Below are positions 9,080 through 59,652 of a stretch of DNA of 64,000 bases, one piece after another. This DNA is from Albugo candida. Lineage: Eukaryota. Within the stretch, counting starts at the first letter, position 1. The number at the start of each line of letters is the position of its first letter. The stretch is taken from the NCBI GenBank assembly GCA_040437565.1, contig JBDOQK010000010.1, forward strand, positions 496,001 to 560,000, given 5' to 3'. The notes under the pieces were generated by a model, which had not been told where the DNA came from, ran no database searches, and saw only the letters and a list, made by a program, of their open reading frames with translations. The translations under genes and the position numbers were made by a program.

Positions 9080-9734
9080 CTCAGATTTTGAATATTGCTT
9101 CTAGCTGTGCAATTTTAGCACTATGACAGAAGCACAACTAATAACGACTAATGTCTCTTCAAGATTGATCAATTCTATCGTGAAAGTACGTTCGGACATG
9201 CGACGAACCTTGTCCAAGTACGCTATCAAACATGCTGCAAGAAGCCGAGCCTTATCAGGGAACTAGAGCGTTCGTAAGTAAGGTTTACTTTGGGTATATG
9301 CCTTTTGCGTCGAGATAGATAATGTACACAGGGTTGAGCGCGATAGCTTTAGAAATTGAAGTAGTACAATTGTGCTGGAACTGAATTGACTTGTATGTAC
9401 AATCATGTTAGCTCATGACCGCTACATATTTGAACGTATGAAAGCCTCATATTGAATATAGAAGCGCTTACGAAGTTAAAGAAGGTTCAGCCACAAGTTC
9501 AGCACCATCCGAGCATATGTGGCGACTACAAGTCCCGGGAAGCGGCGTACTGTTTTTAAGTTTGATATTTCGATATGATCTCAGCGGAAGATTAGGTTCA
9601 AAGACTGGGTATAGGACGCTACCACGGTTGAGAACCTTATAAAATATTAGTTTTAGTACTTCGTGATTTGCTGCACTGGTGGTAAAGCTCCAGGATCGTT
9701 GTCAGGCCCGTCAAGTGACGTTCGAAATCGGTAT

Positions 9735-34167: not shown

Positions 34168-35531
34168 TTATCTGTACTTTGCAAAACCCATTTTTGGGAT
34201 CTGTTTTCCTGTCCCCCACTCAAAAACGGTGTACATTATACGGAAAAAGACCTGGCCAAATACCCACGTCTTCCGATCGGTTTGTGGCGACAATGCCAAG
34301 ACGCAATAATTGCCTGAGCGAAACATATAATCATCGCTTGTGAGGTTCACTATCGCTTCTCCAAACTGAAATCTCAGCGTGGGAAGTTTTTCATTGTAAC
34401 AGAGAGCGACATACCGTCCATTGAGAAACGCAAAAGAGAAGCCTTCACGATCCAATGCCAGTATAATTGTGTTCAATTCCATTTTCGGGACCATGATCCC
34501 GGCTCTAGCTGGATTGAATTGTGCGATCATAAGATGATTGTCCAAGATAGCTTCATGATCAAGCTTGACTTGACTGAATTCGATCGTCCATGGCTCATCG
34601 GTGTCACATACTGCGACATATGACAACGCCCCATGAATCGGATCGACCTCTCCGATAACGAGTTCGCCGTACGATTCGTTGTATATGTAAAATGAATAGA
34701 CGTTCAACGTGTATTGCCTGGATTTCAAGAAGTGGTAGAAGGGTGTGTCGTACATATTCAGATTGGTTGTGGTCTTGTACCCAGATCCGAGTACTCCTTG
34801 ATACTGATCNNNNNNNNNNNNNNNNNNNNNNNNNNNNNNNNNNNNNNNNNNNNNNNNNNNNNNNNNNNNNNNNNNNNNNNNNNNNNNNNNNNNNNNNNNN
34901 NNNNNNNNNACGATTCGTTGTATATGTAAAATGAATAGACGTTCAACGTGTATTGCCTGGATTTCAAGAAGTGGTAGAAGGGTGTGTCGTACATATTCAG
35001 ATTGGTTGTGGTCTTGTACCCAGATCCGAGTACTCCTTGATACTGATCGCGTTTCATAGAGTCTAATGGTGCGCCAGCGCTAGCGATTATGATTTTTTCA
35101 TTTCGGGCTTGCATTTTCCCCAATTGTAAATCATCTCTTGCATAATATCCGTCAATCTGAATGTTATTTTCGCCAGGGATCGAAACGTACGAAGTCCACC
35201 ATCTCCGACGAAAAAGGTTTTGATCGTAAAATTTCTGGGGAATCCAAAATACAGTCGAGTCAGTAACGACTTTTATACGAAAATCTCGGCTTGTTTCAAT
35301 AGTCAGAGGGTTTGCAGGCTTACCAACCGAAATAGTGAGCAAATAATGCTGGGAGGACCAGTACACGTTTGCGTTCATTGCAAATTCCGACAGCGAATTC
35401 CCTGTGGAAATGTTTCCTTGTCCGACTATAGAGATTGGTATACGCTCGACAGTGGTCATCGGTGAATTAATGCTTTGATCGCGAAAGCCCGGAAGGACCG
35501 AAAAGCCGATAAGCGTTGAAAGAATAGTCAT
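34168..35531 (-). CDS. Pepsin-fold (A1) aspartic protease homologue, predicted catalytically dead (~374 aa after collapsing the gap duplication)
   Basis: YLLTISVGKP, GYYARDDLQLG, YQGVLG, GELVIGEVD, LPTLRFQFG, WVFGQVFFRIMYTVF...MGFA. Both DTG motifs degenerate. Hydrophobic N-terminus. Confidence 0.82.
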
Positions 35532-35958: not shown

Positions 35959-38550
35959 TTACCAAGATGAAGCGCTCTGAGTGTATCGCAGCACACCATT
36001 CTTTTTCGTATGCTTAGTAACGACTCTTATTCGTCCTTCCACACTTTGTAACAACAAAAATAAAACTTTCTTGTCGGCAGATACCATCACATTGGACGCT
36101 GAGAGATCTTGTAATATCCGCGCATGTAATTTTTCGTCGAAAATGACTGCTTCTTCGGTCAAAACGCTCTGTAACAGTAACACCGTCTGCGAGTAAGCTT
36201 TGTAGGCCGTATCCCATTGCCCCAAAACTTCCTTCATCGCACCTTCCTTGCCCAGTTGAATCACGTGGGCATAGATAATACCGTCAGGACGAAGAACCAC
36301 ATTGGAACAGCTCTTGATGCATTCCGGACTACTTGATCGTATAAACTTCCGACAACGATCAGCTCGATCAATGCAAATTGCCAATTGTTCCATTAGATAC
36401 GCAATCGTCACTTTGCGACTGGGTAAGCTCCAATGGTTGGCCAAAGCGGACCAAGGTTGGGAAGACTGGCGTCTTACTATCTCAGGATCTTGATGCATAT
36501 ACGTAATTGCATTCTTGATGAGCCGCAAACACTTGATGTATAATGATAGAGCTTCCCCGGAAGAAAGAAATCGTTCCCTTTCCAAAACTGCGTGTGAGGA
36601 GGATCCATCGTCCGAGTTATCCCATCGCCCCGATGCTGCGGGATCATTTGTGCTGGCAGGAGCTTGGCGAGATGCCGGTGCATCGCTACTTCGTGAGGAT
36701 GCCGATGACGATTCCGGGCTCATTGAGAAAATTGAGATAGCGTTCAGTGAGTGGTGTTGTTGCTCGGTGCTCGAGATGGGCTCCAACGAAACGATCTGTT
36801 CATGGAGCTGTAGGGATAGAAACCACATTTTTTCAGCCAGAGTTGCAACAGCTTGGATACGATGTATGGTGGCATCCACAGTTTGTTGAGCAAGCCTGGG
36901 AGTAGCTGAGTGCATGGCTGTTTCGGCTTCAGAGGTTGTGATAGTAGAACTCACAATTGCGTCCTGTGAGGTCGATGCGTTTCCAGCAACAGAGGTTCTC
37001 GGAGATGAAGGCTTCAAGCCGTCCCTTCGTATAGACGTACTTGCCAGCTTTCCTTGTTTGCTACTCTCTACCAAGACGTATTCTTCGCTGCTGTCAAGGA
37101 TGTGATTTTCCGTTCGAAATGGCGGACAACTGGTATAATGTTTTGCCAAAGCATGTGGATCATGCAGAGGTACTGAAATTCCTTTCGTACTTATGTCAAT
37201 ACCACGATTAGTCCCACTGTTTCTGCTCAACGTTTGGTTTGTGATATTTTTGAATGGATTGATCCGTGGGCTTGGAATGACTCCTCCATCGGGACTTCGT
37301 TGTGGGCTCAACTTTGGACTATTCCCATTGATTTTACTAAAGAAACGATTTGAAGATGTGAGTCGTTGAACCGTGTTGGACTTCAAGCACATCGGCTGAG
37401 ATCGTGGAGTACTTTCCGCGTTGTCTTCCTGTCGCTGCATTGTTCGGTTGTCTTGTGCGTTCTTAGTCACGGTTTGCAAGAGTTCATTGTTAATATTCAG
37501 TGACATATGCGAGCCTGCAGAACTCAGCGGCTGTGCATTGGACAATCTCGGCAGACTTTTATCAGCCAAATCTGCTTCCAGTTGTTGTCGATCCTCAGCG
37601 TGAATATTCGGAGCTGTTACAGGAAGCGAATGCAACGTGACATCACGGCTTTCAGTGGCGTTTTCTTTTATTCCAAGATCGTAATCATTCGTGCTATCTC
37701 CCTCCACGACCAGGTTCACAAAAGGATGCTGGAAAAATTCTTCAAAGCCGGTGCGTGTCAAAGGGCTTCTCTGAAGGAGGCCTTTCAATAGGTCGATGCA
37801 AGGCTCTGAGAATGCTGCGGAAGGAGGAAATCGTAGCTCTGTGCGCTCAATATTCGCTAACAATTGTACATGATTTGCACCTCCAAACGGCGGTCTCCCG
37901 ACAAGCACTTCATACAAAATAGTTCCAATCGACCATAAATCCGCTTTGGCGTCATATTTCTGAAATTTGAGAATTTCTGGGGCCATATACAAAGGCGAAC
38001 CACAAAGAGTTTCTGCCATCGAGGTCGTTGTCAAATGACGTGCGAAACCAAAATCTGCAATTTTAAGAGTAGCGTTGGGCGAAAACTCACTCAATAACAG
38101 ATTTTGTGGCTTTAAATCTCGATGCACCCAGTGATGTTGCCATAAGCAGTACATTCCTTTGGCGAGCTCATGAAGAAAATGCTGAGCAATGTTTTCCGGC
38201 AGTGCGGTCGATCCCCGGTCATCGCTGTCCTTTGGCTGGTTGTATCGCTTCATAAATTGCTGTAAATCGCCTCCAGCGCAATATTCCAACATCAAATAAA
38301 TGTGCTTTTCGGTCTTTTTGATATCATGCAATTTCACGATATTCGGATGATTAATTTGACGCATTATAGCGATCTCAGACTCTAAGTTCTCTAATAATTT
38401 CTTATTTAGTTTTTGTAGACTTAGTGCTTTTATGGCAACAGGTAGCTTTGTTAGTTTGTGATATCCTTTATACACTACCGCAAAGGAGCCACTACCAATC
38501 TTACTGGTGACTACATAGTCCCCAATGGAGCCACTCGACCCTCGCGACAT
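35959..38550 (-). CDS. ATG1: ATG1/ULK autophagy kinase
   Basis: IGSGSFAVVYKG, LENLESEIAIM, HRDLKPQNLLL, KIADFGFAR, MAETLCGSPLYMAPEIL...KYDAKADLWS; AIM-like EEYVLV; C-terminal MIT-like helices (EALSLYIKCL...). Confidence 0.95.
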   Translation of the reverse strand: MSRGSSGSIGDYVVTSKIGSGSFAVVYKGYHKLTKLPVAIKALSLQKLNKKLLENLESEIAIMRQINHPNIVKLHDIKKTEKHIYLMLEYCAGGDLQQFMKRYNQPKDSDDRGSTALPENIAQHFLHELAKGMYCLWQHHWVHRDLKPQNLLLSEFSPNATLKIADFGFARHLTTTSMAETLCGSPLYMAPEILKFQKYDAKADLWSIGTILYEVLVGRPPFGGANHVQLLANIERTELRFPPSAAFSEPCIDLLKGLLQRSPLTRTGFEEFFQHPFVNLVVEGDSTNDYDLGIKENATESRDVTLHSLPVTAPNIHAEDRQQLEADLADKSLPRLSNAQPLSSAGSHMSLNINNELLQTVTKNAQDNRTMQRQEDNAESTPRSQPMCLKSNTVQRLTSSNRFFSKINGNSPKLSPQRSPDGGVIPSPRINPFKNITNQTLSRNSGTNRGIDISTKGISVPLHDPHALAKHYTSCPPFRTENHILDSSEEYVLVESSKQGKLASTSIRRDGLKPSSPRTSVAGNASTSQDAIVSSTITTSEAETAMHSATPRLAQQTVDATIHRIQAVATLAEKMWFLSLQLHEQIVSLEPISSTEQQHHSLNAISIFSMSPESSSASSRSSDAPASRQAPASTNDPAASGRWDNSDDGSSSHAVLERERFLSSGEALSLYIKCLRLIKNAITYMHQDPEIVRRQSSQPWSALANHWSLPSRKVTIAYLMEQLAICIDRADRCRKFIRSSSPECIKSCSNVVLRPDGIIYAHVIQLGKEGAMKEVLGQWDTAYKAYSQTVLLLQSVLTEEAVIFDEKLHARILQDLSASNVMVSADKKVLFLLLQSVEGRIRVVTKHTKKNGVLRYTQSASSW

Positions 38551-38858
38551 TACGAATGAGCAATCAATATCAAAGTGATTTCTTCAAAAGTCACGCCTTT
38601 GCGTTTTTCTCTAATCTCTAAGTACTGAAGTATCGGTACACAGTCCGGTTAAATATTGATTGAGAGACTATGATCTCAAGAGCTTCGCGGAGTAGCAGAA
38701 ACAGACAATTTGACTTGACGTTCATATGCGAACTTTATTTGGTGGAAGAGCTTACTGCATGTATCTGTATTCGTTGTCGTGTAAGAGATGGTGTAACGTC
38801 GTTGTTTGGCTCGTTGAAGCAGGTCCAAGGCGAAATTAGTTTATTTTAGTCATGTGAG

Positions 38859-42374: not shown

Positions 42375-42541
42375 CTTATTTCCCACTATCCCGATAACAA
42401 TTTTTTCAGTATTGTGACGCGCCTTAATTGTCTCACGTTCCATCCGTCACAAACTGCCTTATGCGAATACTGAAATAGCAGACAACACCATAAGTTATGC
42501 TTTCTGCCAATCATAACTGCATTAAAGCAATCAAAGCCGTC

Positions 42542-43824
42542 ATGTTAGTGGAGGCTATCAAACGCACTTTGATTCTATCGAAATCATGCAGGATAGCTAC
42601 TTTTCAATCACTATTTACCACTTGTGGGAGAACACTTCAATTAATGGAGCGAAAGAAGGTTACCGCGACGGATCTCCGCGTTTTGAAGCTTAGAGGAAAA
42701 CCAATTACAATGATTACAGCATACGATTATCCATCCGCCGTGCACGTCGATCTTGCGGGGTTTGATGTTCTTCTTGTCGGGGATTCGTTAGGTATGGTTG
42801 AACTGGTAATGCGAACAAAGGCTTTGAATTCTGCTTTCGACTGATCGTGTTTTATTCAGGGAATGAGCACGACACTGCCCGTTACTCTGGACGATATGAT
42901 ACACCATTGCAAGGCTGTGAAACGGTAACGAGAACAGCATTAAATTTATGAGCAAACACATTCTATATATCATATTTGGTAGCGGCGCCACACGACCGCT
43001 AATTCTCGTGGATTTGCCTTTTGGAACGTGTGAAGGCTCACCTTTTGAAGCTCTTTCAAACGCTCAAAGACTACTGAAGGTGATATTGTGGCCCTCAAGT
43101 CAATGTAGCTTTATAATACGACGACGACTTTGGTGTAGGAAGGCGGTGCAGATTGCGTCAAAATCGAAGGAGGTCAGGAACGAGCAAAGACGAGTGAGAA
43201 ACATCAAGATGTCGCCTGAGATGATCGTATTAAGATACATTTTGCGCAGTCAGAACAATTGTAGATGCGGGAATTGCGGTTGTGGGACATGTTGGACTTC
43301 GTCCGCAGCACATCAGTGTCATGGGTGGGTTCCGAGCACAAGGGCGAACAGCTGAACAAGCTGAGAAAATCATTGAGGATGCTATTGCTATTGAAAAAGC
43401 CGGTGCTTTCGCTCTTGTGATTGAATGTGTACCATCAACAGTAGCGAAACACATCACCGACATTCTAGAGATTCCAACTATCGGGATAGGAGCAGGACCG
43501 CATACATGCGGCCAAGTGCTAGTTTTCCATGATCTATTGGGAATGCTGCAACACCCTCATCACGCTCAATTCGTTCCAAAGTTTTGCAAGCGATACGCTG
43601 ACGTAGGACAAGCAATTCGAAAAGGTTTGGAAAATTATCGTGACGACGTGGAAAATCGTACTTTTCCGAGCGAGCAGTACACTCCCTATAAAATGACACA
43701 AGAAGAAGAAGAAAAACTGCAACTTCGTGTGTCAGAACGATTTGAGCCGCGTAAAAAGAACGCAGCTGCACCATCCAGCGATGACAAAACAATGCAATCA
43801 GAACCGCCCATCAAATTGTACTGA
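42542..43824 (+). CDS. panB: 3-methyl-2-oxobutanoate (ketopantoate) hydroxymethyltransferase with probable mitochondrial presequence, multi-exon
   Basis: [49 protein letters not shown]...[19 protein letters not shown]. Confidence 0.95.
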
Positions 43825-46140: not shown

Positions 46141-49100
46141 CTAAGACTCGCGTCTCATCCATTTTTGAAATGTCTCGTAAGTCCATAAGGATATGCCGAC
46201 AGAAGGAACAACTCGAATCGTATTCACGACAAACCCCCGATACAAATTGAATGGATTCCAGCGAAATTTCCACCGCTGTGATGTCTGATCTCCCGGCTTG
46301 ACCGCATGTGATGAAGTATCAATAGATCTGAGAAAGCAATTCCATGTCGAATGATACTGTGGAAAATGAGTCTCTGGATGCCAATTTCCAGCAACTTGCA
46401 GTCTTCGTCGCATGAGATCAAACGGATATGCGTACGCTTGTGCGACAACTGCGGCTGTCATTGCACAAAGAATCTGACCGCGGCCATTCGGTCGATTTTC
46501 TGGTTCATCTGTAGGATCTTTTCCTTGAGAGATATCATTGTGATATTGCAGAAAAACTGGTCGCCAAAACTCATAAGTCACATAATAACTCCCGAAATAA
46601 ACGAATGCTCCAAGATTCGAAGCGGTTGAACCGTGGAAAAAGCCTCGGAAGTTTTCTTTTGCGTAAAGGCTTTTGACAATTTTTTTGATTGGCGTCATAG
46701 AAGAGCTCTGCACACTCATTCTCGTACGCAAAGTATCTAATGGGAGGCACAAAGTATTCACAACAATTCCAATGAGGCCACATGCGAGAAAGTTTGTGTC
46801 GAGCCCAATGAAGGATATAAGTCGCTCGTGGCTGCTGATTTGCTTATCTCCATTTCTAGAAGATGGCACTGGGATTATACGTTGACCTAACGTATCGTAC
46901 ATGGTGCTTGTAAGGAATAACTTCATTGGCAACGCCGGTAACAACCACAGACAATGAGTGAGATTTCCGGCAAAAAGGCCTGTGTCATTCACGTCAACTC
47001 AAGCTCCAAACATTTGTGAATGTCATCTTACCTCGCCATCGATTCAGCCTGTACATTTGGAGCAGCCCTCGTACGATACCTCTCTGTGCGAAATCGTAAT
47101 GCAAGCTTGAAGCGGCACCTTTGAGCGTCGATATCTGTTTCAAGATCTTTAATCGGTCCAAAGGAGCACAGATTGTCCTAGCAACAATACCGGCAAAAAT
47201 GGCACCAGCTATGCCCAGAAAGCACGATAAAGCTTGTGTACGTTGTAACCTCATGATACCAGTTTCGTCTTCATCTTTTTCAAGTGCTGGCTTCAAATAC
47301 TCCCAGTCTGTACCACTGGGGCTATGCCGGCTTGTTAAGCTCCATCCTGTTTCAAAATCGTGCAACATCTTTGATACTTTTGCTTTGATTGTTGAGTTTT
47401 GTGCTCCAGTGGATGAATATTGATGCCGATGAGGAAGTTTTTGGATCTGGACGACGTTCCAGAGCTGACGCAAATCGATCAAATCTGACTGCAGAGTGTC
47501 CAAGAAGGCCAGAAACTCCTTTCTAGCTTCTGATATTCCCAAGTTTTTGTTTCGGCTTCTCGACTGTGATTGCTCGTGCAAAATTCTCGTGATACCACGC
47601 ACCAAATCCTCGTAGGTGACATAGTGATTTCCCAAGCTGGCCATGGCTACTTCCGTCTCAGCTGGGAAATTAAGGGAAAATAAATCTCGATAGAATGAGA
47701 GTCGAGCACTGTCGGTCAAAGAATTGCCACTCTGTTGACATCCCGCTCTTTGCCAGATCATCATAGCCTTGGTCAAATCTTTTAGCTTCACATTGCAGTG
47801 ACTTCCTCCAGTTGGGTACGCACCAGTATCCAGATCTTGGCTGCTGCTGTGCAATGCACGGAAGGCTGCTTCCGGCAATAACTGATCCACTTGGGCGCTG
47901 CTTAACGCGATATGAAAGTGAGCAAACTGTGAAAAATTCACCAAACCGGATGAATCTCGAAGTAATAGAGCCAACGCGAGCTGGATTGCTCGTTTATTTC
48001 TTTCCTTGTCACAATTTGCTTCATCTATCAGATTTTCTTTCCGGTTCTCCAAGGTTTCGTATTCGCTCGTTGTTGCTGGCCAAGAGGTGAGCAATCTTTC
48101 AAGATCTGCCCGAATCATAAAATGCTCTTCTCTTTGGCTAGTGAGGCTCTGATTCGATGTTTTTGAAGCTTCTGAGGTCGTCGGACGTCGAATGCTGCTC
48201 GCACGCTTAAAGAGCTCGTACAAAGAAGCCGATCCGCTACGTGTGATAGTGACAAAAGAAGCTCGATCCATACACCAGACTTTTGTATCCTGTAAAGCTG
48301 TGACCGTAGCCCCCCTCCTGCTATTGTACAATAAAGCTGCTTCACCAAATGTGCTACCTCGTTTTAGGGTACTATCGACGAAAGAAGCTGCCGTCGATGC
48401 AGCCCGATCATCGTTTTGGTCAATCAGAGTTTGTGCTTGAAAGAGTTGTGGGGGTTTGCTGCGAGTTACTAGACATTCTCCATTCTCGATAAGATAGAAG
48501 TAATCACCAACATCTCCTTGTTGCAAAATTCTACTCCCAGCAAGATAGTTTAGCGGGAAGCACTTTCGTACCGCTAAAGCCTTTGTTCGAGCGTCCAAAG
48601 ACTCAAATAACGGATGTTTGGATACTGTTTCCATTAGAAAACGATATTCTTGAACCGAATATTGGCTGGATGGATGGGCCTGAATAGCTTCTTGAAAAGC
48701 TGCTTTGTCTAGCTTCCACAGCACAGCCGTTTTTTTCTCAGCCGGCTTGGTCGATAGCTCCATTTCCGGCATTACACGCACTGTCGCACGTCTCGGTGTG
48801 TCATAAATTAGCGCTGACATCCCAAATGCACTGGACGGGCCATTCGTGCCTACAACCACGTATTCAGGCTCGCTCGCTAGAGGGATCGACTGCCACAGTT
48901 CCTTGGGCAACACCGTATTCTGTTCCAAATGACGTTGAGATTGCGATTCTTCATCTGTTCTACCATCTTCGAGTTTTTGCAGTGCTGAATCCCTGTAATT
49001 CACTAAAACTTCGCACTCTCCTTCTTCTATGATATAAAACCCATCGCCTTCCATTCCTTGATAAAAAACGACCTCGCCTGGATCTAGTTCGACACGTCGA

Positions 49101-50149
49101 AATTTTTTGACCAGTTGCTGTAACTCCATGATATCTCTATTATGGAATAGAGGATGGCGCTTAAGAGCGTGAAGAATCACTTCAGAGGCTAGAAGATCGT
49201 TGTTTCTTTGGCTCGAGGCTTCACAGCTCTGTTCGCGTCGTTGATACTCAATCGCATTAGAGCGTAGCTCTTGACGAAAAGAAAGCTCAGGTAGTAGCGT
49301 CGTCGTCTGCTGTAACTTCACATAGTGTGACTCATCGGTGGAAGAAAAATGCTTGGGTGCATACAAATGAGCTGACGGATACGGTAACAAAATTCCTAAA
49401 TGCTGATACAACGCAGCAATCAACTGTGAGCAAAAGACTTTATGATGACGCTCAATAGGAGATATGGCTTCTTCACTTTCCTTTCTAGAGTTTTTATGAG
49501 GATATAGAGTCTCTAAGCGCTGCATTATCTCTTGTGCCTTCATCTGAGTACTTTGCATTTCTTTAGAGAGATTGTTCCTTTCAAATAACGTCATATTGGA
49601 ACGATGATCCATTTCGCATTGAAACTGTTTGATCGCCTTTTTGAGATTTACTAGTTCGTTAAACAGTGCTTCATGCTGCATCCGTGTACGTCGTTGGTAG
49701 CCTGCATTCACAAAACGCTCCAAACGATCCTCATATTTGCTGTCTTGAACGAGCTGGACGAATTGGTGAGCAGCCTTTTGGAATTCTGAAGTACGATGAA
49801 CTTGCAAGCGCCGAATGGAAATTTCGTTCGCGCGTGACCGAAGAATCCGATCCTCAAGTGGTCGGAGTTTGACGCCACTGAGAGTAGCTTCCAGTAAATG
49901 AAGCTCGGAAACGTTTTTCTCCGACTCTGCTGATGCCGGGACGCGAACAATGACCCCAATATGGTCCCAGTCCGTATTTCCAAAGAGTTTGGCACATGTG
50001 CATATAATTCCGCCGTATAGATCCATTTGAAAGCAGGGCCGGTTGAACAAAACAATATCCCCAGTGTCGATTTTGGCGTTTTCGATAAGCGATTGCAAAA
50101 GCTTCTTATCCGTCTCTGCGTCATATTGCGACTTTGTTAAGGGCTTCAT
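46141..50149 (-). CDS. Fusion: permuted NlpC/P60 papain-like domain + 2 cNMP-binding domains + EF-hand-like motif + mitochondrial carrier (~1318 aa; intron 46980-47031)
   Basis: TGDIVLF...WDHIGV...LLEAT...KYE...VFCSQLIAALYQHLGIL; FGMSALIYDTPRRATV and FGEAALLYNSRRGATV; DSSGLVNFSQF; three carrier signatures PLDRLK, PLDTLR, PFDLMR. A 52-nt GT-AG intron joins the two ORFs in frame (WRG|LFAGN). Confidence 0.88.
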
Positions 50150-50781
50150 TGGAATCCTTTGGTAGCGCCGATTTTGCGGTGGCAGAGCTATAAATTAGAC
50201 AAGAGGCCGACTATGGTAACCGAAAAGGACCAGTACGATGCTTTGCGTGCCACGCGACCGAAAATCATTAAAACATCAAAAGTAATTACCCAGGAGTGCT
50301 ACAGCATTCGGGAGCATTGCGATCAATATTCTCATGTGATTAGGTAGCTACAATAGCGGAGACTTGAGCTATAAATGCGTTTTTTGTAGTCGTGACATTC
50401 GACGACTATCATCCGCGACTTCCTTTTAAGATAGATTAGCTCATGTAGGGTAATTATCAAGATAGTGAATTTGCATTCTACAGCCTATTGTCATCTCGAA
50501 TAGCAATGCAGTCGGATCAGTCTGAGCTATACGGTAGACTAACGTCTGCATGCCCGCACTACCTCGATCTCGTTGTTTGAGCTCACGTGCGCTTTGTATA
50601 ACGTGATATCAATAAAATCGGCACGAGCAATTCAGTTTGCAGATGCTAGGCTCTAATCTACTCGATAAACTTGTGAATTGACAGCAAAGAGAGAAAATTC
50701 CAGTGCTTAGCAAGGTATTCCGACGCGAATTGTAGCTTAGATTCGGTAATTTCGAACAAATATCAAGTACGACTGGTTGAT

Positions 50782-53089
50782 ATGGGAGACATGCACATGA
50801 CAAGTGATCCCAAGCAGCTCCTTTTGAAAACACTTGAGCAGTACAATTGGTTAGCTGCTATTATACGATTCTTATAATACTTGACTAAATTTGTCTATGG
50901 GAGTAGCATGCCTGTAGGTGCGGCCCAAAGAAATCAGAATTTGTGTGATTTTGTTCTCGAATTCGAAACAGTTGTGATCATCACAGCAAAATTATTAAGC
51001 ATCATTTCATTTCAATCAAGAAGATCACATTATTTGCCACATTCACATCGTAATATACTGGAAGTCACACAATGTTTGGTCAAATCCGAGCATAAAGATG
51101 CATACACTTTGCCTACGTCAGTGGCGGCTCGTCATCGATTGGGAGCAGAACTGGCGCAACTGATTAAGGTTTGGGGGAATCAGAAGGAAACATAGACATG
51201 AACCTCCTTGCTCAGAATGCTTTATTTTGCAGGAAATAGGATACACCGGAGAGTGCGGATACAATCACTTTCTTTATCCAAATGAAAAAGAGACTTTTGA
51301 GCTTTTTTCTTGGCTGGTAGGACAAGTCAATCCATCTGCCGAATCGTATGGAAGCGACGCGACAAATCAGGAAAATACGCTTGAGCGCACAGCGCCAGGC
51401 CACAAAATGCTTACCTCTCTTGGCTTACAATTTAGTAAACAGGAGATGCCGGAAGAAGGTTTTTTGTCTGGAAATTCCATAAAGATCTGTCTACAATCTT
51501 GGAAGAAGCAAAAAACATTATACGCGTGGCCGAATACACAGATCCCAGCTTTACATGGATATCAGAAGCTTGCATCGAGAACAGGTTTTTTGCCAAGGAC
51601 GTCATGGCACAAGGGTACCATTTGCTCTAAAATTTTCGATCAAGATGGCGCACCACCCGATCTTTTTGATGGGTTACCGCTTGAAGCATGCAGAATTACT
51701 TCACTTAGTGAAACATTGATGCTGAACACGAATAGCAGCGGTCCATTAGAAAATGTTTTGTTATCTGAAAACCTGATCTCTTATGGGTCAGATGAAGAAA
51801 TAATGAGTTGTATAGAGGCACACAAATCTTCGCACGACACAATGTCTTCAGATCATGATCCGAAGGAAGAAGTGTCTGACGAGAAAGTTTTTTTTACCGA
51901 CACAATTCAGGATTTCAAATCAATAGACGTCGACCATCCATCATTGAGTGCTACACAGGAACACGTGCCTCGAGATTGTAGCTTGGTAGTATGCGGACTT
52001 GAGGTACCAGCTTACCTTACATCCTCCACACGTATGATAAACGCGGTATTGGGTTTCTAGGTCGATCCTGCGCAAACGATGATGGACAGGATGAGACTGG
52101 CACAATCACAGTCTAACAGCATGGAAGAAGTCGGCGACACATTGCAAGAAGAGGAGAAACAGATCGAAATAATAAAGGAACGAATCGCAGAAATACAGCG
52201 TTCTGGACACACATTACAGAGAGAAGTTTCACAATATCGTAAACTTGTGAAAATGATAGTCGACCCTGAGAGCAACATTGGAAGTCTGAAAGTACTACGC
52301 GACCGAACTGAGTCACAACTGTTCACTTTTACCAAAGAATGGGAGCAACATCAGGAAAGGTTATCGGAGAAAGAGACAGTGTTGGAGATAAAGCGACAAG
52401 ATCACCAGAGAGATCATAATCACCTTATTATGTGCCTCAAGCGAGTACGACGAGAGCTAAAGCAAGCCAAATTAGTGCTGCAAGAGAAGACAAAAGCATT
52501 ACAGGAAGTAGAAGATATTTATCAGCACTTCCCGAAGACGAAATTGACACGAAAGGGATACATCAATGGAATTCTCGAAGTGATCAAACAGATTCACAAG
52601 CAAAAGCAAGAAATTTTGAATATTATACAAGATATACGCTCGGTACAAAAACAGCTCAACCTACAAGCTGAAAAGCTCAAACGAGTAGAAACAATGGGTG
52701 ACGAAAAACTATTTCGAGTAGCGCTGACTTCCTTGGATTCTGCTCAGCCAAATCCATTCACATCAGCTACCACCTCTTCGACCGTTGTATCTCTTTTATT
52801 TCCTTCGGCTTCTTCCGACAAACCCTCTATCGAATTAGGCAACAAAAGCCTACTCATTGAAAATTACAGAAAATTCACTGAGATACGTCAATTGTATGAG
52901 GAGCTTTTTTGCCTAATAGATCGCATTGGTAAAGCTGAAGATGGATCAAGAGGTCTCAGAAATTGGGTATCTCAGGCAGAAAGCAGGGATTCGGGCCGTT
53001 TTTTGCAGCACATTACTAACGATATTGCGAGCATCAGAAAAGAAAACGAGGAGCTACTAAGAACGTGCAGCGAATCGCCAGTCCTGTAA
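50782..53089 (+). CDS. CCDC22: Coiled-coil domain-containing protein 22 (CCC/Commander complex), multi-exon
   Basis: LPTSVAARHRLGAELAQLIK|EIGYTGECGYNHFLYPNE; RKGYINGILEVIKQIHKQKQEILNIIQDIRSVQKQLN...DEKLFR. Confidence 0.88.
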
Positions 53090-53200: not shown

Positions 53201-54109
53201 TCAATGAGCAACGTGAACTCGAGCTAGGTGATGCTTTGTAGAATGCTGAGATATGTTAAGATGTTCTTTGGGCCTAGATCCATTCCTGCCCGTGTTATTG
53301 CCTGACTTTCCGAAGCTACCAAAACGAACAACAACGGGACGAGGAGCTTCTCGTAGACGATGCAGCACCTTGGAGAGCCCCAAACCATTCAATTCCTGTC
53401 CATTAACGGCCAAAATGAGTGTTCCATTCTGGATTTCAGGATACTGACTCGCCTCTGAGTTCTTCAGGCATTCTCGTACGATAGCGAATTGCTTCCTTTC
53501 ATCGACACCAAGCTTCATTCCAATCGATTGCTGCTCGAAAACAATATCGAAAACAGCTTCAAGTCCATCCATTACCTTCCGATTTGTCATCATGATCGGA
53601 CTGGTGGTCAGTTCAGGAAGATGTTGTGGCAAGATATTTCTACCATTGCCATAATTTACCGAGTCGGTATTTTGGTTGGCAGCATCACTGTGCCCATAAC
53701 CGCGTGTTGTCCTTCTGCTCGGTCGACCTACGGCCGGATCGTCGTAATCATGTTCTGGTAGAAAATCAAGACTTTTTCTCATATCAACTTGATCTTTACG
53801 ATGAGGTTGATTGTCGCGTGAAGAAGTTCGACTATATTTTCGTCTTCCGGATTTCGGCGACAGGTAACTGGTGGTATCTTGTGTAGCTTCATCGATTGGA
53901 TAAGAGGTGCATCGATTGCGCGTGCTCGAGCTCGAGGCCTCTATTTCTATTTCCGGATTTACTTCGCAGTGCTCCTGCTTTTCTTGCTTATCTTTCCCAC
54001 GATATGATCCCAGTATATACGATTTCAACAGATCGAGGAAAGCTTCTTGTGGGCTATCATCACTTTCTTTGCGCGGATGGGCCTCATCATGATCGTCTTG
54101 CCACGACAT
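53201..54109 (-). CDS. Low-complexity protein with a C-terminal PDZ-like domain
   Basis: FDIVFEQQSIGMKL...AIVREC...IQNGTLILAVNGQELNGLGLSKVLHRLREAPRPVVVRF. Start uncertain (54109 or 54232). The copy at 55065-55885 is a gap artefact. Confidence 0.75.
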   Translation of the reverse strand: MSWQDDHDEAHPRKESDDSPQEAFLDLLKSYILGSYRGKDKQEKQEHCEVNPEIEIEASSSSTRNRCTSYPIDEATQDTTSYLSPKSGRRKYSRTSSRDNQPHRKDQVDMRKSLDFLPEHDYDDPAVGRPSRRTTRGYGHSDAANQNTDSVNYGNGRNILPQHLPELTTSPIMMTNRKVMDGLEAVFDIVFEQQSIGMKLGVDERKQFAIVRECLKNSEASQYPEIQNGTLILAVNGQELNGLGLSKVLHRLREAPRPVVVRFGSFGKSGNNTGRNGSRPKEHLNISQHSTKHHLARVHVAH

Positions 54110-56513
54110 ATCGTGCTCCTTGCCTCCAACGATGGCAAACGCGTACAACTGTTGGAAAAATAAGGTATCTGTCCCTTTCTCCGCAAAAATAGCCGGGTAA
54201 AATACGGGAGCGGCACGTAGCCAACTGAACATCTCACTAGAAAGTAACAAGTACTACAATCAGTATGAGGTGGCGTATAAGGAGAAGTGAAATCTAAACT
54301 ACTTTCGAGATGAATTGAGCTGAGTTCGGGCTTCAATCACGTCCATGGATTGCGCACTTTTACCTATCGACTGGAATAAATCGACCACTAAGCATAGAGA
54401 GTTGAGAATACATTTGAACGAATACTACGCCAAGACAAAACAGACCTTGCGCTCGAGTGCGATTATATAAAACCTGTAGTGGTTCACAGTCTTTAATTTG
54501 AAATGGGGAACGCTGCTGTTGCTGAATAGCGGTCGCTTGTTCAAGAAGCCAGTCGGCTTTTTGAGATGAGTCGCACGTAATATCGTGCGTTCGGGTCCGT
54601 ACAAAGAGACTATGAATAGTACATTACATACAGAGGAAATGATGATGTATACTGTTAAGTGATAGGAAGACAGCGCCGACGCATTGTACCGCACGGTTAT
54701 AGCCTCTCCCATTGTTACTAGATCGAAGCTGAACGGAATGATTCGAGAAAACTTGCAAAAAAAAGTACTCGGTCATATTTCATATATTAGCAATATGCGC
54801 AACAAAACACAGCTGCATATCATTTTACACAGCTCTGCACACAACGCTACATTACATAAGGCCAATTGTATTCTAATTCTACGCGCAAAGCATTGTGTGT
54901 AGGCATTTGAGTATGTCACCATTGGCTTCGCGTAGCTTGCGCTCCGCTTGTTGAGTAGTAATTTNNNNNNNNNNNNNNNNNNNNNNNNNNNNNNNNNNNN
55001 NNNNNNNNNNNNNNNNNNNNNNNNNNNNNNNNNNNNNNNNNNNNNNNNNNNNNNNNNNNNNNNNTGGATTTCAGGATACTGACTCGCCTCTGAGTTCTTC
55101 AGGCATTCTCGTACGATAGCGAATTGCTTCCTTTCATCGACACCAAGCTTCATTCCAATCGATTGCTGCTCGAAAACAATATCGAAAACAGCTTCAAGTC
55201 CATCCATTACCTTCCGATTTGTCATCATGATCGGACTGGTGGTCAGTTCAGGAAGATGTTGTGGCAAGATATTTCTACCATTGCCATAATTTACCGAGTC
55301 GGTATTTTGGTTGGCAGCATCACTGTGCCCATAACCGCGTGTTGTCCTTCTGCTCGGTCGACCTACGGCCGGATCGTCGTAATCATGTTCTGGTAGAAAA
55401 TCAAGACTTTTTCTCATATCAACTTGATCTTTACGATGAGGTTGATTGTCGCGTGAAGAAGTTCGACTATATTTTCGTCTTCCGGATTTCGGCGACAGGT
55501 AACTGGTGGTATCTTGTGTAGCTTCATCGATTGGATAAGAGGTGCATCGATTGCGCGTGCTCGAGCTCGAGGCCTCTATTTCTATTTCCGGATTTACTTC
55601 GCAGTGCTCCTGCTTTTCTTGCTTATCTTTCCCACGATATGATCCCAGTATATACGATTTCAACAGATCGAGGAAAGCTTCTTGTGGGCTATCATCACTT
55701 TCTTTGCGCGGATGGGCCTCATCATGATCGTCTTGCCACGACATATCGTGCTCCTTGCCTCCAACGATGGCAAACGCGTACAACTGTTGGAAAAATAAGG
55801 TATCTGTCCCTTTCTCCGCAAAAATAGCCGGGTAAAATACGGGAGCGGCACGTAGCCAACTGAACATCTCACTAGAAAGTAACAAGTACTACAATCAGTA
55901 TGAGGTGGCGTATAAGGAGAAGTGAAATCTAAACTACTTTCGAGATGAATTGAGCTGAGTTCGGGCTTCAATCACGTCCATGGATTGCGCACTTTTACCT
56001 ATCGACTGGAATAAATCGACCACTAAGCATAGAGAGTTGAGAATACATTTGAACGAATACTACGCCAAGACAAAACAGACCTTGCGCTCGAGTGCGATTA
56101 TATAAAACCTGTAGTGGTTCACAGTCTTTAATTTGAAATGGGGAACGCTGCTGTTGCTGAATAGCGGTCGCTTGTTCAAGAAGCCAGTCGGCTTTTTGAG
56201 ATGAGTCGCACGTAATATCGTGCGTTCGGGTCCGTACAAAGAGACTATGAATAGTACATTACATACAGAGGAAATGATGATGTATACTGTTAAGTGATAG
56301 GAAGACAGCGCCGACGCATTGTACCGCACGGTTATAGCCTCTCCCATTGTTACTAGATCGAAGCTGAACGGAATGATTCGAGAAAACTTGCAAAAAAAAG
56401 TACTCGGTCATATTTCATATATTAGCAATATGCGCAACAAAACACAGCTGCATATCATTTTACACAGCTCTGCACACAACGCTACATTACATAAGGCCAA
56501 TTGTATTCTAATT

Positions 56514-57000
56514 CTACGCGCAAAGCATTGTGTGTAGGCATTTGAGTATGTCACCATTGGCTTCGCGTAGCTTGCGCTCCGCTTGTTGAGTAGTAATTTC
56601 CATTTCGCGGGAAATGAAGACGATATCATCTTTTTTTACTTTTACGGCTTCGAGCTCGGCCTCCCTAGAATCGTTTCGCTCCGAATGAATGATGACACAT
56701 ATCTCAAGCATTTGTCACGTACCGTTTTCGATCTGCCTCTTTGTCAGCTTCTTCCTGCTTTTGTAAATCCATGAAAGCCTCCTTCATTTTGTTTTCATCT
56801 AGTTGCTTATCTTCGATTACATCCGTTAACTTTTCCAGCGCATTCGAAGCTTCAGCCTCACTTTTGGTTGTTGTTTCTTGCAGTTTGTGCTCAGATTCCC
56901 CATCGTCAGATGCACAACATTTCTCATTTCTGTGAGTGTGATGCGAATGGGTATGATGTGATTCAGCGGAATCGGATCCGGTGGCTGCCTTTGTGTTCAT
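56514..57000 (-). CDS. HYPK: Huntingtin-interacting protein K (NatA cofactor); exons 56723-57000 and 56514-56664
   Basis: ALEKLTDVIEDKQLD...R|EAELEAVKVKKDDIVFISREMEITTQQAERKLREANGDI. Confidence 0.9.
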
Positions 57001-57048
57001 TATTCGCCTTTTTTCAAGTACCTTTGCCACATTAATTTAGCGTCTTCA

Positions 57049-57072: not shown

Positions 57073-57225
57073 CCTATGTCTACATCGCTTAGTTGAAGCA
57101 TTTGGTGCTTCGTTTTGTACCAAGTGGCGTGCTCATTGTCGACTCCCTATTTTGCGCACTTGAAATCTACCATTTAAGCGTGAATTTGTATATAATTATC
57201 GTTGAGGCTACTCGTAATTATCATC

Positions 57226-59425
57226 ATGAAGGACGACCTTCCCGACGTCGCTTCACCGAATCATTTTCATCAGGCTGAGGCCCCAAAGCAAGATCTCCGA
57301 GGTTGACTGAATGCATAATACGCACACTGCGCTTCTCATTCGAAAATGTAGTCGTACTACAAATCTTACTCTGTTCGTTGGACTCAATAGGTGGACAGAG
57401 AGAACAACTATTTGCTCAGGGTAAGAATCGTGCATTCTCCTAGCCGAACCTCATATAAAATCTTTGCTACGAAGTGAACCGGGATATCGCGCTATTTTCC
57501 CGGGTACTCTCGTTCTTGCAAGTGGAGCAATTACTGATCTGGGCTTCTTCATTCAGGATTATCTCCCAGTAATCATCAAAGTGTTAGGACGAACACTTGG
57601 TCAACATGGCTTTGCGGAATCCTCTCGTGGCCTTTGTGACTTTGTCAAGCTTCTTGGAGATGTTGGCAGTAACCAAACAGATCCAGGTATCTTGCAAGAA
57701 CTAATTGCTTTACGCAAAGTGTTGACACCCACCGGAAAATGGGTTGCAAATGATCGCGAGTTGGAAGATAAGAAAGAGCACACTAGGAAAGAGGAATTAC
57801 CGGACCATTTATTTGAAACAGTAGAAGATAATATACGAAATGAACTCACACAAGACACGCATGTCAATTCGGATAAGGCGGCAGCCCAGAACGTAACTCC
57901 CGTGATCGTGTCATCACCACCACGGAAGCTAGTTGTGTCCAAAGGAGATCGAGTGAGGCTTGAGGTTCGGGCGAAACATACAAGGTCTTGCCAATGGTTT
58001 TGCAATGGAAAGGTGGTGTGTCAGGACTTGAGGGAGAAGGCGATGCGGCGACAACCAAACGCTCTGATTATTCCTTCGTTCGGCAAGCATCTGATCGGTG
58101 ATTACACTTGTCGCTGCAGCAACGGTAAAAGCTACAGCGAAACAACATCTTGCCATGTAACATTGGCAAAATTTCATGCAACACAAGTAGCGACTCTCAA
58201 TTTAAGTGGACAGCCGCATTGCGATCTGATGATGGTCTCCCTGTACCCGTCTCGTGGTGCCAATTGTGTTCCTATCAAAGCAATAGCTCTCTGTCTACGT
58301 GGCTCACTTTGCTTTTATGAGCAGAATGATTTTTCAAAATTACATTGGCTCACCGTTAACGAACACTCAAAAGTCGATACGATCGAAAGGCTGCGATGCA
58401 TTTCACTGGATGAGAATTCGAATCTCATGATACTCGCAAAAAGCTCTGAAATCATTCTCACCTCACTTGAGCTTCTCCGACCAAACAGCTGCCACTCAGA
58501 AAAAGATATCTCGGAAGAAGATCGATCCTCTTCGACAGTATGCGTGAATGTTTTGAGACATGTTGCTCTCAGGCCTTCCTGCCCAGAGAGTTCCAGCAAT
58601 GATCTACGCACAAATTCCATCCAATTCGTGCAATTTATTGCCCGAGGAAATTTTATCCTTGTTTCGGACATGTATGGCACGATCTTGATTTATTCTGTCG
58701 ACAAGATCTTGAAATCCATAGAAACTGCATGTATCCATCAAATCCATTTTTCTAATCAGAAAGTGTGTGGTTTGCATGGAAGTGCACACGCACCATTATT
58801 CACAGTTTGTTTCGATGGTACGAACCAAGTCAAGGTGTTTGAGATACGTAAACGAAGGAATTTCTCGGATATCAATCCGAATCAATACTCTTTGATGCTT
58901 TGCCAAAAAATTCAGCTTAAGCTGAACGCGACTTCTGCTTTTCTGGATGACTACGGTTTCCACATTGCAGTGGAAGAATACAGCTGCCTCAAATCATGGC
59001 TATCCATCCACAGTCTTCGCAAACGACCAATGCAAGGTTCATCAGCCATATGCGGTAGCCGAAAGAGGATTTTTGCTCATGACGGTAGAATCTCAACAAT
59101 AAAATGGCTGACGCAGTGGAGCGGATGGGTCGATTTGCTGGTATCTGCCGGATGCTCGGACGGATATGTTAGATTCTGGGATTTTGAACGGAATACGTGT
59201 TTGTATCAATTCAATCTTCACGAGCGAGGAATTTCAAGGTTTCAAGTTCGAACTGATGGACTGTTTTATTGTTTGCTATACAAAGAAAATCAGGTGACAT
59301 TGATTCGGCTAAAAGCTTGGAAAAAGTTGCACAAAACGCGGTTGAGGCAAAAGTACGACACAGCTGCGAAAACGATTCATCAAGTATGGAAAGGATTTTG
59401 CGTAAGACGGCAGATTCGACCATGA
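57226..59425 (+). CDS. Protein-C10 domain + immunoglobulin I-set-like domain + WD40 propeller + IQ motif (~680 aa); exons 57226-57301, 57352-57420, 57475-57503, 57557-59425
   Basis: Three GT-AG introns of 50-54 nt keep frame. Ig: PVIVSSPP..VVSKGDRVRLEVRA...QWFCNG...LII...GDYTCRCSN. WD40: AHDGRISTIKW...SAGCSDGYVRFWD. IQ: AAKTIHQVWKGFCVRR. Confidence 0.78.
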
Positions 59426-59652
59426 AAGGAGATATTTCTACTTTAAATACCCATCATTTCAGGTAATCTAAGACATAGACACAATGGAGGTTGAGGCAAT
59501 CAACAGCGCTTTTCAAAACTTTATAACTCTTTGAATACTCGACACATTGCCGCGGCTTTTCGATCTTGGTATATCAAAAACACCCCTCTCATAAGCCTCA
59601 AAAACGATGGCCTTATCGAAATTTGCATTGATTACCGAAGACAGCGATGCCC

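Follow-up and report, generated by a model that had tools for sequence, protein, structure and literature searches.

The plus-strand gene at positions 57226-59425 of the 64,000-nucleotide stretch of Albugo candida DNA analysed here (the window; contig JBDOQK010000010.1, positions 496,001 to 560,000) is a real gene, encoding a cytoplasmic, multi-domain protein that belongs to a family known to date from oomycetes. From N- to C-terminus, the family combines a five-helix C10 bundle, a linker helix, an I-set immunoglobulin (Ig) domain without a disulfide, a seven-bladed propeller and an IQ-type helix, an order that is conserved among its members, with the individual folds as predicted by structural models. 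We are highly confident of this architecture and of the family membership; taken as a whole, the reading of the locus as a four-exon gene for a scaffold protein of this family is the best explanation available, and a reasonably probable one.

Domain architecture and its conservation

The product of the large terminal exon (exon 4) is identical over its entire length to A. candida ABG067_002119 (NCBI protein P0002; 100% identity), and shares 58-59% identity with an A. laibachii protein. NCBI's own model of the A. candida gene encodes 685 amino acids, vs. 680 for the four-exon model. The features of the locus are as follows:

57226-57301 (+), exon 1, containing the ATG start; 25 codons plus one base, hydrophilic
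57302-57351 (+), putative intron 1 of the four-exon model; 50 nt, GT...TAG
57352-57420 (+), exon 2 of the four-exon model; 23 codons, open frame, GT-AG borders
57421-57474 (+), intron 2 of the four-exon model; 54 nt, GTAAGA...AAG
57475-57503 (+), mini-exon 3a; 29 nt, ..NRDIALFSR, start of C10 helix 3
57504-57556 (+), intron 3 of the four-exon model; 53 nt, GTACTC...pyrimidine-rich...CAG
57528-57556 (+), mini-exon 3b, the alternative to 3a; 29 nt, ..ITDLGFFIQ, running in frame directly into exon 4
57557-59425 (+), exon 4; one open frame of 622 codons plus a TGA stop at 59423-59425
57560-57733 (+), Protein-C10 helices 3-5, forming the C-terminal half of the domain; Pfam P_C10 profile positions 44-99, three helices in the predicted model
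57737-57835 (+), linker helix; helix 61-93 in the Albugo model, helix 111-163 in the Pythium orthologue
57899-58165 (+), I-set Ig domain without the B-strand Cys; Pfam I-set, family profile vs. titin, model strands 116-203
58184-59308 (+), seven-bladed WD40-type beta-propeller; predicted models, Foldseek, partial Pfam propeller matches
59318-59416 (+), C-terminal helix; helix 588-620 in the Albugo model, directly after the last blade
59375-59416 (+), IQ-like core, I-H-x3-K-G-x3-R-x2-I, within the C-terminal helix

A HMMER scan of 1.84 billion representative sequences recovered collinear relatives of 590-736 amino acids, in which the similarity begins in the C10 half and extends through the C-terminal helix. 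Those members that carry a name (many do not) are all oomycetes, namely Phytophthora spp., Pythium oligandrum and Nothophytophthora, and the domain order is conserved in all three genera. No counterpart of the Ig-propeller-IQ portion was found beyond the family in these 1.84 billion representatives, which returned just generic WD40 and Ig matches; the fusion therefore names no specific C10 partner in animals. A metagenome locus (L001) considered as a further orthologue was rejected, as it matches 48 residues of a single protein (P0171) and other members with E 0.59 at best.

The first-pass annotation of this DNA, made from the sequence alone, had read the domains as C10, I-set Ig, WD40 and a terminal IQ-like helix; this reading was right, and every module is clearer in the orthologues. 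Its description of the C10 domain as ‘hidden’, by contrast, does not hold: PF14974 is among the precomputed Pfam domains of NCBI's 685-amino acid model, and several of the Phytophthora and Pythium relatives are automatically named ‘Protein C10’ in UniRef. Because the architecture is conserved and its relatives already bear this name, the fusion was not hidden from the databases. A literature search found no paper on a C10-Ig-WD40-IQ fusion, and the family, although already in databases across the water moulds, seems not to have been the subject of a study.

Against the Pfam P_C10 profile (PF14974; length 103, gathering cut-off 27 bits), the exon-4 product alone scores 18.6 bits (E 0.002) over profile positions 44-99, a restriction to the C-terminal half that is expected if the N-terminal half is encoded in upstream exons. 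The C10 domain proposed in the first-pass annotation is supported in its C-terminal half, at a score below the cut-off, but not in exon 2, for which no significant homology was found. Among 19 relatives scanned, P_C10 was detected in 13 at E up to 0.01 and reached 27 bits in 10, with a best score of 55.1 bits over profile positions 6-87. The predicted model of the Pythium orthologue contains five helices (residues 6-20, 23-36, 40-60, 68-87 and 95-106; mean pLDDT 84.7 over residues 6-106), and an ESM Atlas model of this region superimposes on a chordate ‘protein C10’ cluster with a TM score of 0.81 over 103 residues. In the Albugo model, the three C10 helices (3-5) are predicted with low confidence (pLDDT 53-65), and helices 1-2 depend on the predicted exon 2. 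Human C12orf57 has been described as a five-helix bundle (PMC13478489). A word-limited search for a stand-alone C10 among shorter proteins, using the Pythium C10 region as query, yielded none among 189 candidates at E up to 0.001, a result that, given the word limit, is no proof that oomycetes lack one. In other oomycetes, a long, coiled-coil-like linker helix follows the bundle; its Albugo counterpart is shorter and divergent.

The Ig domain is recognized by Pfam I-set (PF07679) at 25.2 bits (cut-off 23.7), over residues 119-202 (approximately nucleotides 57911-58162) and profile positions 4-89 of 90; Pfam Ig_3 scores 26.4 bits on the exon-4 product (cut-off 30). Comparison of the family profile with known structures yields E 3e-26 for titin (3b43_A) and E 1e-17 for contactin-4. 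The I-set-like domain had been placed at approximately 57899-58160, in agreement with these coordinates, and the features by which it was recognized (a Trp and a G-x-Y-x-C retained, the B-strand Cys replaced) extend across the family alignment, in which the F-strand Gly and Cys and the C-strand Trp are invariant, the Tyr is nearly so, and the B-strand Cys is absent from all 24 aligned rows. Loss of this Cys is known for cytoplasmic Ig domains.

The propeller comprises 27 strands in the predicted Albugo model and 28 in that of Pythium, arranged in seven groups. A Foldseek comparison of the whole Albugo model with the PDB produced at least 500 matches with E of 0.001 or lower, of which the strongest has E approximately 5e-12; those listed are all generic WD40 propellers (E about 1e-11), and none represents a specific relative or touches the C10 or Ig parts. 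Pfam likewise reports partial matches of the exon-4 product to several WD40-type propeller families. The WD40 repeat profile itself (PF00400) exceeds its cut-off in most orthologues (e.g. 42.7 bits in P0011). The WD40 region reported in the first pass accordingly stands as a seven-bladed predicted fold, but not at the level of the repeat model, which scores 13.3 bits in Albugo against a cut-off of 27; the Albugo propeller is established by predicted fold, not by repeat profile.

Splicing at the 5' end

The structure of the gene upstream of exon 4 was examined by scoring 290 open GT-AG splice models against a profile of the orthologues. The first-pass annotation had proposed three introns of 50, 54 and 53 nt; all three have GT-AG borders and keep the phase, and the resulting 680-amino acid product contains exactly the peptide that had been quoted. 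This four-exon model ranks third (57.4 bits, a score attained once when the 33 upstream residues were shuffled 1000 times), and is accompanied by a one-intron alternative within 2 bits of it (55.4 bits, rank 12); the NCBI model ranks 79 (51.1 bits), and exon 4 alone scores 48.1 bits. Both of the models that outscore the four-exon model also use intron 2, and keep no more of exon 2 than its final 6 or 7 codons.

Mini-exon 3a is individually significant on the orthologue profile (its score was reached in 1 of 1000 shuffles) and agrees with the D-[VIL]-[AG]-L motif that precedes Y-[LV]-P in the family, whereas the contribution of exon 2 is not significant (reached by 72 of 1000 shuffles). Pfam searches at E up to 10 returned no families for exon 2 alone, its surrounding open frame or the mini-exon 3a frame; hhalign found no match between the exon-2 frame and the family alignment (probability 0.14); and semi-global pairwise alignments of the candidate N-termini with 11 orthologues were uninformative (z -1.1 to 1.2; exon 2, z = -0.1). 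By similarity to the orthologues, the four-exon model restores the start of helix 3; we infer that it also restores helices 1-2, which exon 2 would encode. The start codon and first donor (GT at 57302) are common to the four-exon and NCBI models, and no signal-peptide-like stretch was seen among the exon 1 residues. The acceptor of intron 2 in the four-exon model is AAG; splice acceptors are usually YAG.

Twelve sequencing runs containing this DNA were identified, none of them on record as RNA. Of four that were compared with 57100-59600, one gave no match and the other three gave four short contigs (57902-58142, 58362-58617, 59099-59347 and 59214-59364); all fall inside exon 4, with no differing letters and no joints, leaving 57100-57855 uncovered. 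An intron survey of the window provided two usable cases, a likely 58-nt intron (GTACGT...TAG) in a HYPK-like neighbouring gene and a likely ∼127-nt intron (42806-42932, GTAATG...GAG, the best fit) in a ketopantoate hydroxymethyltransferase gene, too few for a choice between splice models. The available text of the A. candida genome papers was found to contain no intron-length figures for this species; PMC13585763 names four runs that were used in annotation.

On the basis of the sequence comparisons, we slightly favour the four-exon model as the most likely structure. The one-intron alternative would keep exons 1 and 2 and remove a 107-nt intron (57421-57527, GTAAGA...GAG), so that mini-exon 3b is coding and mini-exon 3a intronic, with protein length and domains unchanged. 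Consistent with this structure, the peptide encoded by mini-exon 3b conforms to the helix-3 motif as it appears in Phytophthora (D-L-G-[LF]...; score reached in 8 of 1000 shuffles), the independent P_C10 match gains ∼10 bits (from 18.6 to 28.7) when 57528-57556 is read through, and the likely ketopantoate hydroxymethyltransferase intron, of similar length and with a GAG acceptor, suggests that such introns may occur in this genome. Its score is nevertheless slightly lower than that of the four-exon model, its own GAG acceptor compares unfavourably with the pyrimidine-rich tract and CAG of intron 3, and the four-exon introns are uniform in length and close to that of the HYPK-like gene; we consider the one-intron alternative rather unlikely.

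The NCBI model shares the donor of intron 1, but uses an acceptor at 57442-57443 and continues as coding sequence through what would be intron 3 (including mini-exon 3b), which, were it correct, would leave Albugo with a truncated or degenerate C10 domain lacking helices 1-2. This model is open, with GT-AG borders and a TAG acceptor, and scores 24.7 bits with P_C10; the genomic read-through piece 57443-57733, part of which is intron under the four-exon model, scores 28.7 bits, above the cut-off. Its low rank on the orthologue profile argues against it, however, as do the 28 residues that precede the motif, a Pro/Gly-rich segment that aligns with the orthologues less well than its own shuffled versions do (z = -1.1), and the presence of helices 1-2 in all orthologues with complete N-termini. 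It is improbable that the NCBI model is correct, and the deposited gene is probably mis-spliced at its 5' end. Least likely of all is a mutually exclusive use of the two mini-exons, producing isoforms with distinct first turns of helix 3: they are equal in length and phase, and each fits the family motif above chance, but 8.9% of the 29-mer pairs drawn from the region as controls are at least as similar as the two mini-exons (11 of 29 DNA positions identical), and there is thus no sign of a duplication, and the mini-exon 3b model requires a weak GAG acceptor.

The C-terminal helix and a possible scaffold role

The segment containing the IQ-like core is helical in both predicted models (Albugo and Pythium). 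In 23 of the 25 family members, a strict IQ consensus ([FILV]Qxxx[RK]Gxxx[RK]xx[FILVWY]) lies no more than 70 residues from the C-terminus; the exceptions are the two Albugo proteins. Among 2000 shuffled proteins, 5 contain it at any position. In A. candida the Gln is replaced by His, and in A. laibachii by Arg (I-R-x3-K-G-x3-R-x2-I); the rest of the consensus (hydrophobic, K-G, R, hydrophobic) is intact in both. Pfam IQ (PF00612) finds no match in the last 46 Albugo residues at E up to 10 and none in the corresponding Pythium piece, and scores 14.7 bits (E 0.028; cut-off 20.3) on a piece from P. ramorum. Of the terminal IQ motif described in the first-pass annotation, a C-terminal helix with an IQ-like core therefore survives, but its Gln and a Pfam IQ match do not.

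We propose that the whole protein may act as a scaffold, in which the Ig domain and propeller would offer binding surfaces and the C10 bundle would serve as a protein-protein interaction module, as has been reported for human C12ORF57 and CAMK4, and predicted for C12ORF57 and ANKRD50. The terminal helix may bring in calmodulin, or a light chain resembling it, and so link the assembly to calcium. For the family, calmodulin or light-chain binding is slightly less likely than not. This step is least certain in Albugo, because the IQ Gln has been replaced and the linker has diverged; as the Gln is lost and Pfam finds no IQ match, calmodulin binding by the Albugo protein can only be inferred, and is doubtful.

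It is also quite possible that, in Albugo at least, calmodulin does not bind the C-terminal helix, which would instead have a structural or dimerizing function or bind another partner; the protein would then be a calcium-independent WD40/Ig adaptor. The missing Pfam match in Albugo and the sub-threshold match in Phytophthora, the loss of the Gln from both Albugo species, and a conserved Trp-Lys-Gly core, followed by a basic stretch that could serve another interaction, are all compatible with such a role; the strict consensus in 23 of 25 members, rare among shuffled sequences, and the consensus positions still retained in Albugo weigh on the side of calmodulin.

C10/C12orf57 is a conserved protein, whose loss causes a human neurodevelopmental syndrome (Temtamy syndrome). 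Its molecular role is just starting to be described: according to a 2025 preprint (PMC11838199), the human protein binds CAMK4, a calmodulin-dependent kinase, and modulates it, and this binding drops on deletion of a regulatory segment beside the calmodulin-binding segment; a complex of C12ORF57 with ANKRD50 has been predicted (PMC13478489). The suggestion in the first pass that the fusion partners could hint at C10 function is reasonable in this light, and fits the CAMK4 preprint (PMC11838199), but it identifies no specific animal partner. A bolder interpretation, which we regard as speculative and not very likely, is that the fusion is a ‘Rosetta stone’, identifying C10 as an ancient adaptor of calmodulin-regulated assemblies, with the mini-exons at 57475-57503 and 57528-57556 perhaps alternative and varying helix 3. 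The C10 bundle, sharing a chain with an IQ helix and a propeller/Ig platform, would then act on, or adjoining, a calmodulin-binding helix, an arrangement that mirrors the report on C12ORF57 and CAMK4.

A conserved fusion of C10, Ig, WD40 and IQ-type modules provides testable hypotheses on the company that C10 keeps, in organisms amenable to loss-of-function genetics; were the ‘Rosetta stone’ interpretation true, a tractable microbe could be used to study the molecular function of the Temtamy syndrome gene. The value of the fusion is limited in that its architecture was already visible in public domain annotation, and that its non-C10 part has no counterpart found beyond the family. The deposited A. 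candida and A. laibachii models, the latter of which begins within the C10 domain, probably need correction at their 5' ends.

Comparison with known systems

The closest known sequences are the oomycete ‘Protein C10’ entries (Phytophthora infestans, P. sojae, Pythium oligandrum), which are collinear with the Albugo protein over its whole length, at 23-26% identity to the exon-4 product. In contrast to these relatives, the Albugo protein lacks the conserved ‘ENAKKARLRAKK...GLDPS’ linker, the N-terminal zinc-ribbon-like segment and the IQ glutamine, and its propeller has extra loops.

Oomycete orthologues share the helical-bundle domain of Protein C10/C12orf57/GRCC10 (PF14974). Whereas the animal form is a stand-alone protein (about 126 amino acids according to PMC11838199; 112-127 in the ESM Atlas C10 clusters), in oomycetes the bundle forms the N-terminal part of a larger protein (620-740 amino acids), and is preceded in Phytophthora by a CxxC...CxxC segment. 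The C-terminus resembles IQ-motif calmodulin-binding helices (PF00612) in that 23 of 25 members carry the consensus, but the family has a single motif, below the Pfam cut-off, in which the Gln has become His or Arg in Albugo.

With WD40 scaffolds (WDR5, LST8, PWP2, G-beta), the family shares a seven-bladed predicted fold and profile matches at E 1e-17 to 1e-21; the oomycete propeller nevertheless shows no specific orthology to any of them, and its repeats have diverged in Albugo to the point of scoring below the cut-off of the Pfam WD40 repeat model. The Ig domain matches the profile of titin-type I-set domains and keeps their core Trp and Tyr-x-Cys. It differs from them in occurring as a single domain rather than in an array, in the absence of the B-strand Cys from every member, and in its host, an oomycete rather than an animal. 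Among eukaryotes other than animals, this family is one of the more clear-cut instances of a cytoplasmic protein carrying a titin-like I-set Ig domain.

Oomycete relatives and the C10 domain

The open frame at 57557-59422 encodes 622 amino acids and is 100% identical to a hypothetical protein of Albugo candida (ABG067_002119), with an uncharacterised A. laibachii protein at 58% identity; because of these Albugo matches, the window can be assigned to oomycete nuclear DNA. A HMMER scan of 1.84 billion representatives returned 151 proteins at E <= 0.001, the best dozen or so being collinear relatives of 590-736 amino acids that match from the C10 half through the terminal helix, and the remainder generic WD40 or Ig proteins. 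Family members named by a word-indexed profile search come from many Phytophthora species, Pythium oligandrum and Nothophytophthora (nine rows are nameless).

The Pfam domain P_C10 was matched at E <= 0.01 in 13 of the 19 relatives scanned, and 10 of them reached the cut-off of 27 bits; scores went up to 55.1 bits over profile positions 6-87 (P0010), with 44.4 bits over positions 2-99 in P0013. The six relatives that P_C10 did not match are fragments or models truncated at the N-terminus. The predicted structure of the Pythium orthologue (mean pLDDT 84.7) opens with five helices at residues 6-106, followed by a long helix at 111-163; an Ig domain and seven blades built from 28 strands come next, and residues 617-651 form a terminal helix. 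In the ESM Atlas model, the first 110 residues of this orthologue align at TM 0.81 to a ‘protein C10’ cluster of chordates, and PMC13478489 describes human C12orf57 as a bundle of five helices. For the family as such the C10 assignment is secure, and the Albugo gene is a member by collinear homology. The fusion is not ‘hidden’, as had been claimed: it is already visible in public automatic annotation, and UniRef has auto-named several members ‘Protein C10’. A full-text literature search, with most subscription journals outside its coverage, found no paper on an oomycete C10 fusion, and a word-limited search found no stand-alone C10 in oomycetes. This multi-domain form of the C10 family, represented in Albugo by a divergent member, is apparently undescribed in print.

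Orthologues from Phytophthora, Nothophytophthora and some unnamed sources (P0155-P0161, P0006, P0025 and P0013) carry a zinc-ribbon-like CxxCGSR...CxxCG segment N-terminal to the C10 bundle, whereas the Albugo and Pythium oligandrum proteins lack it.

Domain architecture of the Albugo protein

Domain matches and predicted structure cover the product of exon 4 (57557-59425), from the C-terminal half of C10 onwards. Pfam matched I-set (25.2 bits, cut-off 23.7), Ig_3 (26.4 bits, cut-off 30), P_C10 over profile positions 44-99 of 103 only (18.6 bits, E 0.002, cut-off 27), the WD40 repeat (13.3 bits, cut-off 27) and, in many partial matches, WD40-type propeller families. A 24-sequence family alignment yielded a predicted structure with mean pLDDT 71.8 and pTM 0.64.

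Predicted structure of the Albugo exon-4 product
Residues 3-56: three helices
Residues 61-93: linker helix
Residues 116-203: beta sandwich
Residues 210-584: 27 strands in seven groups
Residues 588-620: terminal helix

This domain order is conserved in the named oomycetes. Foldseek against the PDB matched the Albugo model to WD40 propellers (E about 1e-11), and the family profile matched PWP2, LST8 and WDR5 in its propeller part and titin (E 3e-26) and contactin-4 (1e-17) in its Ig part. The Ig domain is as first read, with the Trp and G-x-Y-x-C kept and the B-strand Cys missing: across the 24-row alignment the Trp and the Gly and Cys of G-x-Y-x-C are invariant, and the B-strand Cys is present in no row. 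By eye, the N-terminus is hydrophilic, without a signal-peptide-like stretch, and the protein is likely cytoplasmic.

In 23 of 25 family members the strict IQ consensus falls within the C-terminal 70 residues, as against only 5 of 2000 shuffled proteins that contain it at any position. The exceptions are the two Albugo proteins, in which His or Arg takes the place of Gln; the other consensus positions (hydrophobic, Lys-Gly, Arg, hydrophobic) are retained. The Pfam IQ model matched neither Albugo (exon-4 product) nor Pythium, and reached 14.7 bits in P. ramorum (cut-off 20.3). ‘IQ-like helix’ is a fair description; the terminal IQ motif initially annotated is weaker in Albugo, which has lost the Gln and gives no Pfam match.

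Alternative 5′ structures of the gene

The four-exon model of the first-pass annotation was rebuilt by script from the sequence.

Exons of the four-exon model
57226-57301, plus strand: exon 1
57352-57420, plus strand: exon 2
57475-57503, plus strand: mini-exon 3a
57557-59425, plus strand: exon 4

Its three introns (50, 54 and 53 nt) all start with GT, end with AG and preserve phase, and the spliced product has the 680 amino acids claimed, including the quoted peptide. NCBI's model (685 amino acids) shares its start and first donor, uses an acceptor at 57442-57443 and then reads through, without exon 2 and the mini-exon; the A. laibachii model begins at an internal Met within the C10 domain. 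An HMM based on the N-terminal parts of 11 orthologues was used to score all open, in-frame GT-AG models of the stretch 57226-57600 that have at most three introns, each of 35-200 nt (17 donors, 21 acceptors and 107 candidate introns, giving 290 models).

Orthologue-HMM scores of 5′ gene models
Four-exon model: 57.4 bits, rank 3 of 290
One-intron alternative (introns 57302-57351 and 57421-57527): 55.4 bits, rank 12 of 290
NCBI's model: 51.1 bits, rank 79 of 290
Exon 4 alone: 48.1 bits, unranked

The two higher-ranking models have the same introns 2 and 3 as the four-exon model and omit most of exon 2. When all 33 upstream residues were shuffled, the four-exon score was reached by 1 of 1000 shuffles, as against 12 for the one-intron alternative and 13 for NCBI's model. 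When the parts were shuffled separately, support was strong for mini-exon 3a (1 of 1000) and lacking for exon 2 (72 and 80 of 1000). By itself, exon 2 gave no Pfam or hhalign match and z = -0.1 in pairwise alignments. Its open frame, good borders and helix-compatible hydrophobic pattern, together with the helices 1-2 found at its place in every complete orthologue, favour it indirectly.

We consider the four-exon structure somewhat better than an even bet. Its strongest competitor, in which 57421-57527 is an intron and 57528-57556 (mini-exon 3b) is coding, is distinctly less probable. The 3b peptide fits the Phytophthora form of the C10 motif and is supported as well (8 of 1000 shuffles), and when this stretch is read through, the score on Pfam P_C10, an independent profile, climbs from 18.6 to 28.7 bits; on the orthologue HMM this model scores slightly below the four-exon model (55.4 against 57.4 bits). 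NCBI's 5′ structure is improbable at 51.1 bits and rank 79, its Pro- and Gly-rich 28 residues at the place of exon 2 scoring below shuffles (z = -1.1); mixtures of these structures take up what probability remains. Splice signals do not decide the choice: intron 3 of the four-exon model has a textbook pyrimidine tract and CAG, its intron 2 ends in AAG, and the acceptor of the one-intron alternative ends in GAG.

Mini-exons 3a and 3b (plus strand) are both 29 nt, equal in phase and 24 nt apart, and either peptide (..NRDIALFSR and ..ITDLGFFIQ, respectively) fits the same C10 helix-3 motif. Under the four-exon model 3b lies inside intron 3, and one of the two has to be intron sequence, barring alternative use of both; whichever model holds, it is mildly surprising that the other stretch is a look-alike. 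Their DNA identity is 11/29, a level reached by 8.9% of control pairs, and hence gives no sign of duplication.

Elsewhere in the window, a small survey of genes provided only two usable introns.

Introns elsewhere in the window
42806-42932, plus strand: 127 nt, GTAATG...GAG, best placement of the first ketopantoate hydroxymethyltransferase intron
56665-56722, minus strand: about 58 nt, GTACGT...TAG, likely intron of the HYPK-like neighbour, joining two open frames

Other features of the window
2-9100, minus strand: uninterrupted open frame of 3033 codons, reaching the window edge
18009-19091 and 19582-20664: same four open frames repeated, offset 1573 nt, suggesting tandem duplication (about 1.6 kb)
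21848-24442, plus strand: large intron-free frame, DEP and protein kinase
About 34800-35000: run of N within an aspartyl-protease gene, which has two open frames covering overlapping Pfam coordinates; an assembly gap, making the gene model unreadable across it
35962-38583, minus strand: large intron-free frame, protein kinase
42494-43821, plus strand: ketopantoate hydroxymethyltransferase gene in three open frames (profile 1-51, 71-104, 122-259)
46997-50194, minus strand: large intron-free frame, two cyclic-nucleotide-binding stretches
51164-53086, plus strand: CCDC22-like gene, N-terminal and coiled-coil domains; its one in-frame stop (52058-52060) implies a short intron ending at that TAG (candidates 57-96 nt)
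53204-54336 and 54776-55971, minus strand: adjacent gene-sized frames with the same overlapping small-frame pattern, suggesting tandem paralogues; PDZ match (25 bits) in the former
56514-57036, minus strand: HYPK-like divergent neighbour, with a UBA_HYPK match (59.5 bits) in its second open frame; start codon only about 190 nt from that of the C10 fusion gene

A possible scaffold and the function of C10

The protein may act as a cytoplasmic scaffold, in which the propeller and Ig domain would serve as platforms, the C10 bundle as a protein-binding module, and the terminal IQ-type helix as a recruiter of calmodulin or a related light chain; the label ‘calmodulin-linked’ is putative. C10 as a binding module is supported from animals: C12ORF57 is reported to bind CAMK4 and to modulate the activity of this kinase, binding having fallen on deletion of a regulatory segment that adjoins the calmodulin-binding segment (PMC11838199, preprint), and a C12orf57-ANKRD50 complex is predicted (PMC13478489). 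The presence of C10 and a calmodulin-type helix on one chain in oomycetes is consistent, purely as guilt by association, with a role of C10 in a calmodulin pathway.
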